Positions 3,171 through 57,585 of a DNA stretch of 64,000 bases are shown in pieces. Position 1 is the stretch's first letter. The number at the start of each line of letters is the position of its first letter. This DNA comes from Octopus vulgaris (taxonomy: Eukaryota). A model generated the notes under the pieces. The model searched no databases. It saw only the letters and a list, made by a program, of their open reading frames with translations, and was not told the origin of the DNA. The position numbers and the translations under genes were made by a program. The stretch is taken from the NCBI GenBank assembly GCA_951406725.2, contig OX597818.1, positions 75,268,001 to 75,332,000 on the forward strand, written 5' to 3'.

Positions 3171-4978
3171 TTCCGCACATGCGCATTGGTGTTTTGCTTC
3201 AACACTTGAACAAGGAGGACATAAGCTAGTGTGCTCCGTCCTAAAACTGAAAATTAAAAAGTCCTTTCGAGGTAGGTGATCTTGTTTGTTTTGAGCTGGG
3301 CGTGATTTATTATCTGGGAATTTTTTTCAGAAATTTCGCCCATCTCTGAGACAATTTCGCCTGCTCTCGGCGGCTATTGTAATTTTTGCTTGTTGAAAAA
3401 ATGTTGGGGGCGTATCCCCGCCCAAAAATTGAAGTTTGTTCCAGTCATTGAAAATTTTTGTGGCCCATTGTGGCGAAGATTCGTCTTCTGTGGATTTAAG
3501 ATTCCAGCTCGGAGTACCAGCCAAAGAAGAGGGCCAGGAGTACCTGTGGCTGGAATTGTGTAGTTGCCATTTGGAACCATATTTTTATTTCTTCCGTGTT
3601 TTTCCTTCTGTTTTTTGAACTGTCCTTTTTGTTTTCTTGTCTTATTTTTTACTAGTTATTTTTCGTTCGGAGATTTGAACTTTCTTCCTCATGGCGATAA
3701 AGAATGGTGCCGCTGCCTTGGACTGGGAGATTTTCCCACCCAAGCAGTGGTTAAAAGATATGGAGGAGAGGACGGTGGTGGTTAGAACTTATTCTAAAGT
3801 TCTTGATTCCATCACCGTCTTCCCAAAACCAGTTATAGAAAATGAACTAAAAGACTATTTGTCCTCTGTGAAATACATATTCCGTGGTGTCAAACATGCA
3901 ACTGTATGGTTGCTGTTTGACAACCGGGAAAAGACTCGCAAATTTGTGAGTCAGCCTTTAGGGGGCAACGAAATTCTGTTCCTCTCGTCGTACTGCGGGA
4001 GGAAATTAATAAGAGCCTGGGTTTGTGGGTTACTCCCAGGCACCGAGGTGGGTTGGATTGAAGATACCATCCGACGGGGACTGGGGGATAGCGGGCCCAG
4101 GCTCTTAAATGTAAGGGTATTGCCGGCGGTTGATTGGGAAGGGTCAAAAGCGATTTTGACCCTGTGGACCCCATCGGCCGCAACAGATCTGGTTTTTTCC
4201 TGATTTTTTTTAAATGGCTGGCTGCAGGTATCCGATGATACTTGAGGGACGTCCCCTCAAGTGTCACTCATGCCTGCAGCCAGGCCACATTAAAAAGAAC
4301 TGCCCCCAGGACCATGATAAGGTCCTGGAACAGTCACTGGATGTCACCTCCCCTACCCGGTCAAAGGGAGAGGTAGATGTGGTTGAGGATGCTGAAGCCT
4401 CCTCAACTCAAAAAGGATTAAAAAGGAAGAAGGATCCTAAGGCTTCGGAGGGTGGGGGAGTTCCACTCTCCCGAAGTCAGGAAGAAAAGAAAAAAGAAAG
4501 AAGAACGGGTCATCGCAGGGGGGAGATGATGTGCCGTCTGCATATCCCGAATTTGTGCCACACACGGTGGAAAAAACGACCCCCACCCTTAAAGATGGTG
4601 AATTAATTATCTTTTTCTACAAGGGCGGAGAGGTGGAAAAAATAGTAAAAGAACACAAAGACAGTAGATATGCCCTTCACACGGGATCCCGAATGGCCTC
4701 CGCAGATAGCTGTGGGAGTAATAAGGTTTCCCTTGTGGGTAAGGCTTAAAGGATTTGGAGAGGAGTGTCGCATATGGCCGTGTGGCCCTTACACGACTTA
4801 CATGTCCTACATGAGTGAGGCATGGGAAATGGCGGGATATAGGAACTTAAGCGGCATTGAAGATAATGATGAATATATCGATGGATATATCGATGAGCAG
4901 GAGGTGATATAACCTCGTTAGAGGGTTTGAAACTTCATCTTATTGTATTATTTATAGTGGTTTATAACCTCAATTGTG
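3171..4978 (+). mobile_element. Tx1/L1-type ORF1-bearing element A (3' terminus not visible)
   Basis: 5'UTR and ORF homologous to element B (24993-27110); ends in (TA)n. Confidence 0.75.
3691..4912 (+). pseudogene. Frameshifted Gag-like ORF1 with CCHC zinc knuckle
   Basis: ORFs 3691-4203, 4214-4606, 4531-4749 and 4670-4912 join; ILEGRPLKCHSCLQPGHIKKNC knuckle, K/E-rich linker, extra C-terminal domain. Confidence 0.85.
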
Positions 4979-8555: not shown

Positions 8556-8995
8556 ATGGACGAAAACAAAGACGCTGAATCTAGGATAACACCACCAAAC
8601 GAAATAAAAAATTAAATTAAAGAAAGGGCTATTGTCTATAAAGTATACAATGTAGAGAAAAAAAAGATTTGAACACCTGGAGGAAAACACAATCGAAAAT
8701 TGTCTTGGTGCGACTATGAAAGATATCAAGTATCTAACCAGAGGCGGTAAATTCGCCACAATAGAAGCAAGGTTCCAGTCAACGGACTGTGCAAGGGAGT
8801 ACTCGACTCGAACCTTGAAAAGTGGAAATATTTTATTTTTACCTTTATATCTGGGACGTAGGACGTCCCGGATAAAAATTTAAAATTTCCCCCCAGAAGT
8901 AGAGGTAGGCTGGATTAGAGCCACACTTCTATACAGGAGGGAGGACACGATACAATTGATCGAAATTGCAAGAGACGGGCCTACATTTCCAGTCT
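8556..8995 (+). pseudogene. N-terminal fragment of the Gag-like ORF1 family (copy E)
   Basis: Manual translation AIVYKVYNVEKKRFEHLEENTIENCL..KYLTRGGKFATIEARF..LFLPLYLGRRTSRIKI*NFPPEVEVGWI aligns with 55386 ORF (YYNRGRKFATVVVHF..LPSYCGKRAVRIRI). Confidence 0.8.
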
Positions 8996-48504: not shown

Positions 48505-48743
48505 CGAATTATTAGTGATCAGCAGTGATTATGTACGAGCAGAATTAGGTAAGTTGAAATATGTTTGTCACATATTTCAACTGCTAAATGGCAAATACAC
48601 GGCAGCACTGTGGATAAAAATCTCTCTTATGGTAAAACGATGTAAAAACACCAGGTCCTTTCAGTGTCGCCATCTATTCGGAATCTCAGACATCGTTGTT
48701 TCAAGCTTCTTTGCTATTTTCGATGAGATGTACCTAACAGATG
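48505..48743 (-). repeat. Retrozyme-like repeat, left part (unit ~337 nt together with 51288-51385)
   Basis: 48505-48700 is directly repeated, diverged, at 51386-51584. Confidence 0.75.
48683..48729 (-). ncRNA. Degenerate type I hammerhead-like fold
   Basis: ATCTCA-[TCGAAAA]-TAGC-aaagaa-GCTT-GAAA-CA-acga-TG-TC-TGAGAT: stems I-III and GTC site present, core deviates from CTGANGA. Confidence 0.45.
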
Positions 48744-54935: not shown

Positions 54936-55208
54936 TTGTTCGAAGGTTTGTAATGGACGCAGGTTCGTGTGTCAAATAGCTAGTTTGAGGCGGTGGCCTC
55001 TTGGAGCTAATCAGCGACAGCTTTAGTCTAATATTTATAAGACTGCCATATTAGTATGGCGATAACTATTAATTTCCAGTAACGCTGCCGTAATCTCCTT
55101 TAGAGAGACTTAGTAATTTTAATATTTCTATTATTGAAAGTAAGTGGATGTATTCCACTGAAACTAGGTAAATAAAGCCTTCGAACTGGGACGATCAGTA
55201 GCGACACC
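54936..55208 (+). repeat. Retrozyme-like repeat, left part (unit 365 nt together with 57356-57447)
   Basis: 54936-55073 repeated at 57448-57585 (138 bp, 3 mismatches); many hairpins. Confidence 0.85.
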
Positions 55209-55385
55209 CGCTTGTTTTTGTTTTTGGTGACTGATATTTCTGATTGCGTTATTCGTGTGTAGCTGTATTTTTTTTGGCATCGGAAAGATTTTGACTACGT
55301 TATTGTGGTGTCGCGGTTCGTGAGATCGAATCCGGTGGTGGAAGTTGTTGCGGCGTGGTGAAGTTTTTTAGATTTTTTCTCGAAC

Positions 55386-56708
55386 ATGGAAAGCCAGACG
55401 TATGCGGGTGCAGCAGGCAAGGGCCTGGTTGCGAACGAATTGCAGTTAGAAGAAGTCATCGTCGAGAAGGAGACGTTGAACAAGTATTTCGACAGCTTGA
55501 AGAAGGAGGGTGACTGTGTGAAGGTCACACCACCCGACGAAGAAACGGAAGAAGCGGAGAAACGGATTATAACGTACAAAACATGGAGTGTGACTTCGAA
55601 AAAAATAGAAGTGACACCGATAGAGGAAGTTGAATGCTCTCTTAAAGAAATAGAAGGAGAGTCTACCTACTATAACAGAGGTAGAAAGTTCGCAACGGTG
55701 GTCGTCCACTTTAAAAGTGAAGACGAGGCGAAGAAGAACGCAACGAAAATTTTAAAAACTGATAGATGGATGTGTTTACCAAGCTACTGCGGGAAAAGGG
55801 CAGTCAGAATAAGAATAAGCAAGATTTCGCCCGAACTAAATATGGAAAGGATATTAGCAGGAGTGGTGTTTAATTGCAAGGAAAACGTGGAAATGTTGAA
55901 TGTCGAAAAATCAAAAGATGTAAAGTGGTGGGGTTATGCAGTGCAGGCGTTAGTCCACATTACAATGCCTGACCTGTATAATATCCCGGAGGAGTTGGTG
56001 TTCCCCGACGAGACACGGCTCAGAGTCGTGGTGGAGGGGAGAGTGTGTCACAAATGCAAAATAAGAGGCCACATGAAGGATGTGTGTCCGCTGAGAGAAG
56101 TACAGGAGAAAACGATAGCACTGGAGACTTCAACGAATGAGTTGCAAGATGCGTGTGTGGAGGAGGAAGAAATCGTTACTACAGATAATGCGGAAAGTGG
56201 TGAAGAGTTGGAGAAAGAAAATAGAAAAAGAACGCTGGTGGAATCACCACCTAAAGAACAAAAAAAGAAGAAGAAAAAAGCGAAAAATAAGATTACTGAC
56301 GAGAAGGAAAACCGAACGGGAGAAGAGGATACAAAAGCAAAAGTGAGTGAACCACTAAAAGCAGTTGAAGAATGGGACAGAAAATTGAAACAGCAGTTGA
56401 AAGATAGTAAGAGAGGAGGAGGACTCAAGGGAAAGAAATACAGAGTGGCAATGTTATACGACAAGGACTTAAATTTGGAAAAGATGTTGCCAGGTAGGAA
56501 AGACTTAATTAGAGTAAAGTTGACCCCAGGAATATTTGATAAATATTGGAAGGCGGTAATAGTGGAGAAAGAGACAGTACGCAAATTGAAGGAATATAGC
56601 GCATTTGAATGGTTATATTTACGTTATGACACCTTACCAGTTGATGTGGATCAGGAAGGCTTACAATGCCTGACCTGTATAACATCCCGGAGGAGTTGGT
56701 GTTGGTGA
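55386..56708 (+). CDS. Gag-like ORF1 protein, 440 aa, CCHC zinc knuckle, K/E-rich linker, extra C-terminal domain
   Basis: Open frame; VVVEGRVCHKCKIRGHMKDVC; homologous to four other copies in the window. Confidence 0.85.
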   Translation: MESQTYAGAAGKGLVANELQLEEVIVEKETLNKYFDSLKKEGDCVKVTPPDEETEEAEKRIITYKTWSVTSKKIEVTPIEEVECSLKEIEGESTYYNRGRKFATVVVHFKSEDEAKKNATKILKTDRWMCLPSYCGKRAVRIRISKISPELNMERILAGVVFNCKENVEMLNVEKSKDVKWWGYAVQALVHITMPDLYNIPEELVFPDETRLRVVVEGRVCHKCKIRGHMKDVCPLREVQEKTIALETSTNELQDACVEEEEIVTTDNAESGEELEKENRKRTLVESPPKEQKKKKKKAKNKITDEKENRTGEEDTKAKVSEPLKAVEEWDRKLKQQLKDSKRGGGLKGKKYRVAMLYDKDLNLEKMLPGRKDLIRVKLTPGIFDKYWKAVIVEKETVRKLKEYSAFEWLYLRYDTLPVDVDQEGLQCLTCITSRRSWCW

Positions 56709-57130
56709 AGGAAAACCGAACGGGCTAAGAGGATATAAAAGCGGAAGTGAGTGAACCGGTAAAACTAACAGCAGAGGAAGAATGGGACAGAAGAAGGGCA
56801 GAGCAGATGAAAATTTGTAAGAGAGGAGGATGACCCAAAGGAAAGAAACACAGAGTGGTAATGTTATACGACAAGGACAAAAATACGGAAAAGATGTTGG
56901 CAGGTAATAAAGGCTTAATTAGAGTAAAGTTGAACCCAGAAATATATAGTGACCTGTGGAAGGCGGTAATCGTGGAGAAAGAGACAGTGAAGAAAATGAT
57001 GTATGATTATAGTGTATGTGAATGGTTATATGTACGTTATGACACCTTACCAGCTATTGTGGATCAGGAGAGCTTAATAGAGTATATAACAGATGAAGAT
57101 CCAGGCATTACAGAGGAGCGCCCGACGTAG
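56661..57130 (+). pseudogene. Internal duplication of the ORF1 3' part carrying the likely original C-terminus
   Basis: 56661-56703 copies 55960-56002; 56707-57070 copies 56303-56660 (diverged); ends EYITDEDPGITEERPT*. Confidence 0.85.
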
Positions 57131-57355
57131 CAGAGTAATATATGTAATTATAAAATTGTAAATTGTAAAATTGTATTTTAAATGAAACTGCGAGTTTTGG
57201 GGGACTCGTAAGCCGTTCCATCTAATCCATTATAAATATCCATTTCAATTCATAATTTTCGATTTTTTTTACTTTATGTACCCCACGTCCTGTCTTGTAA
57301 CGTCCCTCTTAATTCGGGCCTTAGTGCCTATAATAAAGATTTCAGTAGCGACACC

Positions 57356-57585
57356 TGCAACTCCGGCTACGCTGCATTGATAAGGGGCAACAACCCTGAA
57401 ACATGTCTGTAGCTGTCTGACTGGCAGGATGAAGCGGCTGACCTCCCTTGTTCGAAGGTTTGTAATGGACGCAGGTTCGTGTGTCAAATAGCTAGCTTGA
57501 GGCGGTGGCCTCTTGGAGCTAATCAGCCACAGCTTTAGTCTTATATTTATAAGACTGCCATATTAGTATGGCGATAACTATTAAT
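57356..57585 (+). repeat. Retrozyme-like repeat, right part
   Basis: Hammerhead segment followed by the second 138-bp direct repeat. Confidence 0.85.
57371..57413 (+). ncRNA. Type I hammerhead ribozyme motif (core mutated)
   Basis: GCTGCA-[TTGATAA]-GGGG-caacaa-CCCT-GAAA-CATG-TC-TGTAGC; two transitions from CTGATGA; short palindromic stem III. Confidence 0.7.

Follow-up and report, generated by a model that had tools for sequence, protein, structure and literature searches.

An apparently start-site-directed ORF1-only element in a hammerhead retrozyme-like repeat of Octopus vulgaris

How does a protein-coding retroelement come to lie directly beside a hammerhead ribozyme motif? Positions 54936-57585 of a 64,000-nt stretch of Octopus vulgaris DNA (the window), taken from a 2.8-Gb, microsatellite-rich assembly, raise this question. 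There, an element without long terminal repeats (a non-LTR element) that encodes only open reading frame 1 (ORF1) interrupts a 365-bp repeat that carries a type I hammerhead. That the locus is a site-specific ORF1-only element in a retrozyme is well supported. The reading that we favour, with a probability of about 70%, is that the start site of promoters of the small nuclear RNA (snRNA) type is what the element's family targets, and that the insertions would be transcribed from the host promoter.

Insertion position and promoter-like motif

The exact tail pattern of the ORF1-only family has 133 matches genome-wide and 0 in the control, and we read 107 distinct sites. At 87 of them the 3' end of the element falls at one position, the start of a hammerhead repeat; one further end is at U2 +1. 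A strict hammerhead lies 21-38 nt downstream of 53 of the 107 ends, a test passed by 59 of 20,000 random window positions. The other 54 rows were sorted by eye: 14 have a degenerate hammerhead, 3 a broken target start, and 17 are tandem stacks that follow a duplication of hammerhead-family sequence, which leaves the U2 case and 19 sites elsewhere. The hammerhead repeats targeted fall into at least four diverged groups (A, B, C and a mixed D/E), and the letters at the site differ between them. Target duplications are mostly 13-21 bp long, and at the hammerhead and snRNA sites read the orientation is always sense and the insertion falls at one base position. We considered a fixed distance to the ribozyme as the common feature and rejected it, as the 21-38 nt are family-specific. 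To judge by sequence, what the sites have in common is a promoter-like motif together with a putative start position, which are also present at U1 and U2 genes.

The U1 and U2 genes of this genome, in five promoter types, share the motif CAGT[GC], with its A at -54 to -56. A motif of the same type is found at -51 to -57 from the duplication start in 10 of 11 hammerhead-family rows; its chance is 0.85% per 6-nt window, with anchors placed by hand. Among the full-length single insertions with both junctions (n=33), the motif precedes 26 and a TATA-like box 30, against backgrounds of 4.4% and 11%; the 33 targets are related repeats, and their motif counts are not independent. This set leaves out 56 sites without a detectable 5' untranslated region (UTR), 9 tandem sites and 9 without a duplication. 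In sequence and spacing, then, the repeat and U1/U2 have in common a proximal element placed some 55 nt ahead of the start. We take it to be a proximal sequence element (PSE), and its factor to be the snRNA-activating protein complex (SNAPc). A TATA box is absent from U2 type a. The upstream regions of U6 genes, inspected by eye, have no motif of the U1/U2 type at -55. Several of these U6 loci (L211-L225) carry an octamer-like and a TATA motif, and others resemble promoterless copies.

The second line of evidence comes from a LINE (long interspersed nuclear element) with ORF1 and ORF2 that stands in tandem with the ORF1-only elements at common sites. Its exact tails (n=28) are distributed as 22 at family C starts, 5 at U2 +1 and 1 elsewhere. 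The LINE junction coincides with position 1 of the U2 model; in four of the five U2 cases Rfam finds a complete U2 starting at the junction, and the fifth shows the first 14 bases of U2 together with another LINE. A truncated relative lies directly before U1 +1, inside a U1 cluster, and none was seen at 20 other U1 loci read. The LINE is of the L1 group: ORF2 has APE, reverse transcriptase and zinc finger domains (Pfam PF03372, PF00078, PF13966), its best relative of solved structure is human L1 ORF2 (E 2e-58; R2, 4e-22), and no named Tx1 protein is among the relatives that protein searches returned. It is the probable helper of the ORF1-only element, with which it shares an ORF1 similarity of 25% identity over 206 aa (E 3e-26). 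A U2 cluster at C3:20.806-20.836 Mb (L304-L306) holds 4 copies of U2, two of them directly behind full-length LINEs; in one of these two cases the LINEs are two in tandem.

Some copies also carry foreign 5' tags. In four U2-inserted LINEs the U2 duplication is followed by 14 bases with a match to the beginning of a family C unit, and the copy at L124 bears the start of family B in a family C site. The tags begin at the predicted +1 of the other family. Such tags would be expected from RNA whose synthesis began at the host +1, and they lend separate support to the start-site reading. Transcription would be by RNA polymerase II (Pol II), as the runs of T right behind the start suggest; the same argument is made in PMC4494074, and newt satellite 2 is cited in PMC2220036 as having a Pol II promoter of the snRNA type.

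The hammerhead repeat and its insert

At first sight the locus resembles an LTR element, with direct repeats of 138 bp (98% identity) at its two ends. The insert is bounded by an exact 14-bp duplication, TCAGTAGCGACACC, with no further copy within the window; with the insert taken out, the computed period is 365 bp, and 24 of the 30 best copies in the genome have an empty site, where the two parts are continuous. The first-pass annotation, which had proposed a separate insertion into a 365-nt unit and would have been refuted by a lack of empty sites, is borne out on these points, and the stem that it had drawn around the ribozyme is predicted in the same form in a natural empty copy. The coordinates of the features are given in Table 1. 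One hammerhead of the 365-bp unit is present in the window and none further, and therefore this locus cannot release a unit.

Table 1. Features of the interrupted repeat and its insert, in window coordinates.
Feature	Position	Strand	Remarks
Upstream part of the family A hammerhead repeat (unit of 365 bp)	54936..55208	+	5'-truncated; contains promoter-like motifs and left duplication
Left direct repeat	54936..55073		138 bp
PSE-like motif	55143..55152	+	putative function; 10/10 letters as in the -56 motif that a U2 gene has in the same genome; 54 nt before predicted start
TATA-like box	55169..55176	+	putative function; -28 from predicted start (55197)
Target-site duplication, left copy	55195..55208	+	predicted first transcribed bases of the repeat; putative +1 at about 55197
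ORF1-only non-LTR element (HAL1-like)	55209..57341	+	chimeric copy
Element 5' UTR	55209..55385	+	T-rich
ORF1	55386..56708	+	440 aa; two RRM-like domains (about aa 25-215), CCHC knuckle 56046-56087, charged tail
Piece of second subfamily	56661..57130	+	43 nt repeating 55960-56002, then the 3' part of the ORF once more (82% to 56303-56663)
Element 3' UTR and tail	57131..57341	+	AATAAA 57332-57337; no poly(A); tail similar to that of the APE-RT LINE
Target-site duplication, right copy	57342..57355	+	
Downstream part of repeat	57342..57585	+	stops at one of the two usual family 3' ends, then (TA)n
Type I hammerhead motif	57372..57412	+	U3-A8 core; short palindromic stem III (2 bp with palindromic loop); predicted cut after 57407
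Hammerhead stem I	57372-76/57408-12		
Hammerhead core TTGATAA	57377-83		
Hammerhead stem II	57384-97		
Hammerhead GAAA	57398-401		
Right direct repeat	57448..57585		138 bp

Searched with the window stretch and with an empty copy of 201 bases, Rfam reports no hammerhead match, so the assignment to type I hammerheads made earlier now rests on the motif and on covariation. Across 20 motifs from several families, 92.9% of the cells are paired and 10 of 12 pairs have two-sided changes, including all five pairs of stem I and four of stem II. None of 500 shuffles reaches this pairing score; the structure was drawn by hand, which biases the comparison with slid controls in its favour. Positions 3 and 8 pair in 19 of the 20 (12 CG, 5 UA, 2 UG). 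The core TTGATAA had been taken as a possible mark of an inactive copy, and CTGATGA was expected in a consensus. CTGATGA is not found, and 29 of the 30 repeat copies have TTGATAA (19 found by pattern, 10 by eye); together with the covariation of positions 3 and 8 this identifies TTGATAA, at the level of sequence, as a compensatory U3-A8 core and not as a sign of decay. U3-A8 is a reported natural hammerhead variant, and a stem III that is short and palindromic suggests that the ribozyme cleaves as a dimer (PMC4209133).

A genome search with 57342-57585 gave 2689 first-look candidates, of which 40 were scored; the 30 best loci were picked by their likeness to the query, and hence all contain the ribozyme. 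In these 30, the 3' end is at unit positions 135-138 in 13 cases and at 195-198 in 12, and the sequence that follows is mostly AT-rich or (TA)n. Inverted parts occur in 13 loci. Upstream of the ribozyme the unit sequence goes on, with no coding region. The unit has a period of 358-365, lacks LTRs and ranges from dispersed monomers to tandems; more than one unit is spanned in 14 of the 30 loci. The predicted fold of a natural 358-nt monomer as a circle has z = -5.7 against 60 shuffles. By these sequence features and the covariation of its hammerhead, the unit behaves like a non-LTR retrozyme, as had been proposed. It has been proposed that retrozymes depend on Penelope-like elements (PMC7229834; 10.64898/2026.07.22.740005), whose insertions are described with inversions and partial tandems (10.1101/2021.04.23.441226), and the host retrozyme was likely spread by such an element. 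A young Penelope-like element with a GIY-YIG domain is present in more than 60 copies (L344-L372; 97-99% protein identity); at 30 loci of this one element we found no sequence in common with units A or C.

The insert belongs to a family of elements of about 1.6-1.8 kb that have a single ORF1 and neither reverse transcriptase nor endonuclease, in agreement with its earlier description as a separate ORF1-only element. Its gene had been called Gag-like. Pfam and NCBIfam contain no family for the window ORF1, and zf-CCHC is matched by 8 of 21 aligned relatives (Pfam). A structure model of residues 1-255, with a predicted local distance difference test score (pLDDT) of 85.7, is similar to proteins with tandem RRMs, at a best E of 1e-4 and with low TM-scores, and the Atlas clusters for this protein are CCHC and ZCCHC3-like (0.91-0.93). 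The protein is an ORF1 of the L1 group, with two RRM folds and one CCHC knuckle, in place of a Gag. It is under purifying selection: the median dN/dS is 0.15 over those 59 of the 66 pairs from 12 copies that have dS >0.3, and the pairs are not independent. Octopus bimaculoides and Argonauta hians have the nearest named relatives of the two proteins studied.

The copy in the window is chimeric: a copy on C1 is its best match as far as 56663 (98% over 56303-56663), and past 56707 other copies match at 96-97%. A 43-nt repeat lies at the joint, the 3' part of the ORF is duplicated, and the last 14 or so aa of ORF1 are out of frame past the junction. A template switch is the likely origin. Contigs of three sequencing runs cover parts of the unit and the element, and one of them bridges the promoter region, the duplication and the ORF; that they represent RNA is a guess, and we do not use them as evidence. 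Elsewhere, one ORF1-only copy (L037, C19:1.18 Mb) is interrupted by a stretch resembling an LTR retrotransposon.

Proposed cycle and competing explanations

The start-site reading suggests the following cycle. The LINE endonuclease would be brought to promoters with the motif, and to some TATA promoters, and would nick the template strand at about +1, where reverse transcription would be primed. The new copy would lie in sense orientation behind the host promoter, and its Pol II transcript would open with the duplicated host bases. The transcript would run into the hammerhead and be cut about 64 nt past the start, leaving a 3' end with target sequence, which would favour return to the same repeat family. 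Trimming of the element's 3' end by self-cleavage is plausible. Once, a multi-unit retrozyme transcript took an ORF1 passenger to new chromosomes. A bolder version remains speculative, with the odds against it in its full form: the LINE and its ORF1-only partner would be tethered, perhaps via ORF1, to the SNAPc pre-initiation complex and insert at +1 of any snRNA-type promoter, having lost a promoter of their own; retrozymes would be a self-renewing pool of thousands of harmless sites, with the hammerhead making the RNA 3' end; retrozyme transcripts would carry ORF1 passengers; and a 1.84-kb unit flanked by ribozymes would possibly be a protein-coding circle.

Several observations weigh against start-site targeting. 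Of the 107 ends, 19 lie outside hammerhead repeats and U2, five of these being 5'-truncated with their own duplication; off-target sites have a short start in common, Y|ATC or Y|CAG, which shows some preference for sequence. One sub-lineage (L283, L287, L374) nicks about 8 nt further downstream. The hammerhead families seem homologous in the promoter region, which brings the motif match nearer to one observation than to ten. The U1 case is single, 5'-truncated and without a visible duplication, and the pairing of the ORF1-only element with the LINE rests on shared sites and tail, with ORF1s of low identity. A sister ORF1-only subfamily with another tail uses TATA-type sites without the motif, in tandem arrays of short spacing (L111, L113-L122, L130; C4:70.04 Mb, C4:27.05 Mb and others). 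In its long head-to-tail arrays, members of a family with 35% identity are interspersed; the array sites are of the CCAAT/TATA type or of other kinds, with no hammerhead, and at 18 of 20 loci no hammerhead lies behind an element. The subfamily is young, since many copies score identically. We considered whether its TATA site at L130 is the pseudo-LTR of the GIY-YIG element and rejected this, because the sequence continues differently in the 29 other copies of that element.

A last such point comes from the ORF1 tree, which covers 79 of the 107 sites and has four long branches flagged. On this tree, 19 changes of target label are needed, where the minimum is 5 and the shuffled mean 44. Being above the minimum and below the shuffled value, the number indicates that lineages prefer a family but often switch; well-supported branches force at least 5 changes for A, at least 8 for B and at least 6 for C. 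The strong clustering also fits guidance by sequence, or hitchhiking.

Guidance by sequence is the basis of an explanation that needs no transcription factors. In it, the endonuclease has a loose preference for sites like Y|ATC, hammerhead-cut read-through RNA anneals to homologous target DNA or the long inverted repeat forms a DNA structure, which would bring copies back to hammerhead repeats, and U2 is targeted through four first letters in common with family C. We regard it as unlikely, though not negligible. The clustering of the tree by target family fits it well, as do the linker letters between tail and target, inherited within clades, the differences between the two duplication copies in 16 of 33 cases, the ATCG that begins both U2 and family C, and the short motif common to off-target sites. 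It has difficulty with switches between families whose sites share only 2-4 letters at most and with the U1 +1 insertion, where the start is different; in unrelated repeats, moreover, some full-length copies follow a TATA box at a distance of about 25-30 nt, and U1 and U2 have neither a hammerhead nor a long stem.

Hitchhiking leads to the proposal, close to that of the first-pass annotation, that the ORF1 gene is cargo of the retrozyme, and that composites, possibly protein-coding circles released by ribozymes, explain the association. Transport of this kind did occur. A composite with a common deletion junction is found at 4 loci on four chromosomes (C1, C9, C10, C15) with unrelated outer flanks; two copies can be aligned for 2.2 kb with 94% identity, stop at the usual repeat 3' end before (TA)n and then diverge, and two composites have 5' inversions. 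At L302 (C10:96.12 Mb), two retrozyme units hold an ORF1 passenger between hammerheads 1844 nt apart, which makes this locus, by its sequence, a candidate for a ribozyme-released coding RNA. As the main route, cargo is already refuted, and we give the explanation little credence: the composites are just 4 loci of more than 100. Elsewhere the ages of element and flank disagree, in both directions: the window ORF1 has 97.1-97.7% identity to those at L032, L033 and L035, with flank identities to the window of 90-93%, and L033 and L047 have flanks at 96% and ORF1s at 84%. Mixed tandem stacks with a duplication between members, and the U1 and U2 insertions, do not fit cargo either. Even in the composites the passenger is surrounded by intact units rather than composite repeats, which is better explained by a linear read-through template than by a composite circle. 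The element thus reached its sites mostly by independent targeted insertions, and as a passenger only in one composite at 4 loci; to that extent the picture of a retrozyme carrying an ORF1 gene survives.

A generic preference for the open promoters of highly transcribed multicopy repeats, in which the snRNA-type motif has no special role, overlaps in part with start-site targeting and would account for the sister subfamily and the few copies at TATA/CCAAT sites without the motif; we find it very improbable in view of the one base position and constant sense orientation at hammerhead and snRNA sites, and of U2 type a, which lacks a TATA box. Chance insertion into a repeat as abundant as this one, or an LTR retrotransposon with 138-bp LTRs, can be dismissed, since 87 of 107 ends share one position, the 138-bp repeats are part of a host tandem unit with empty sites, and ORF1 is of the L1 group.

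Known systems and neighbouring copies

The host unit is like metazoan non-LTR retrozymes in its 365-bp length (mussel units are 350-390; PMC7229834, 10.64898/2026.07.22.740005), its type I hammerhead with short palindromic stem III and its range from monomers to short tandems. Units with 5' inversions and (TA)n flanks recall Penelope-like insertions, and the snRNA-type promoter motif recalls newt satellite 2 with its reported promoter. It is unlike those retrozymes in its U3-A8 core and in being the standing target of a LINE family; the excerpted text of the same two retrozyme papers reports no LINE-type parasite of the units.

HAL1 (half-L1) is non-autonomous and encodes ORF1 alone (PMC5753468). 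The insert resembles it in both respects, and in its target duplications and LINE-like tail. It differs in its invertebrate host, its two RRM folds with a CCHC, its strong site specificity and its far divergence from the helper ORF1. It is not a HAL1 in the strict sense of a mammalian L1 derivative with a poly(A) tail: the ORF1-only clade has no poly(A), and the nearest named relatives of the insert's ORF1 are from Octopus bimaculoides.

Among Tx1-clade elements, Keno, Tx1 and Tx1-Mar/SINEU (PMC4494074, PMC4640811, PMC6136364) offer a parallel in an APE-RT LINE at U2 and at mobile elements, in tandem stacking and in a non-autonomous partner that shares the target; Tx1 elements are aimed at other transposons and at U2 (PMC4494074). 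Keno and Utopia cut inside U2, at nt 38/39, with the flank starting at nt 39 (PMC4640811, PMC6136364). They use one conserved sequence and break the gene, whereas the octopus family inserts at U2 +1 and in many unrelated sequences. In being position-specific relative to a promoter, it resembles TRE5-A and NLTR-A of dictyostelids and to yeast Ty3: TRE5-A is an L1-group element whose ORF1 contacts TFIIIB, and Ty3 lands 1-4 nt from the Pol III start (PMC5911963). TRE5-A and Ty3 aim at Pol III genes, TRE5-A about 50 bp upstream and in opposite orientation; the octopus family would aim at Pol II promoters of the snRNA type, in sense.

Literature searches, with Repbase, subscription papers and supplements outside their scope, returned no LINE aimed at retrozymes or at an snRNA +1; the Tx1 elements, HAL1, and TRE5-A and Ty3 come nearest. 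To our knowledge, the animal site-specific LINEs described so far read one DNA sequence. What the octopus LINE family recognises seems to be a position in the promoter, in sequences that are otherwise unrelated; elements of yeast and amoebae are known to do this at Pol III genes. If true, retrozymes supply thousands of targets, which would explain how an element that targets U1 and U2 survives on few such sites, a question raised in PMC4640811. The insertions would also mark where retrozymes begin transcription, and would suggest that promoters of the snRNA type occur well outside newts. For targeted gene insertion, an integrase system directed to start sites would be attractive, and with the ORF1-only partner one can test directly what ORF1 contributes to the choice of target.

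Further relatives are present in the window. Distant relatives of ORF1 (28-32%) lie on the + strand at 3730-4038 and 8731-8973, the second preceded by an AT-rich sequence common to the arrays at L116-L118. On the - strand, 51350-48690 is an internally deleted relative of the LINE, with a piece of ORF2 at about 62% identity and an 18-bp duplication. Another hammerhead-like motif, with the core TCGAAAA at 48723, follows it after 19 nt, the U1b-type motif stands upstream at a distance of about 61 nt, and the unit is present once more at 51.4-51.65 kb. Finally, two L1-group 3' ends with a similar tail, at about 32271 and 30850 on the - strand, adjoin (TATC)n microsatellites, and possibly belong to a microsatellite-targeting relative.

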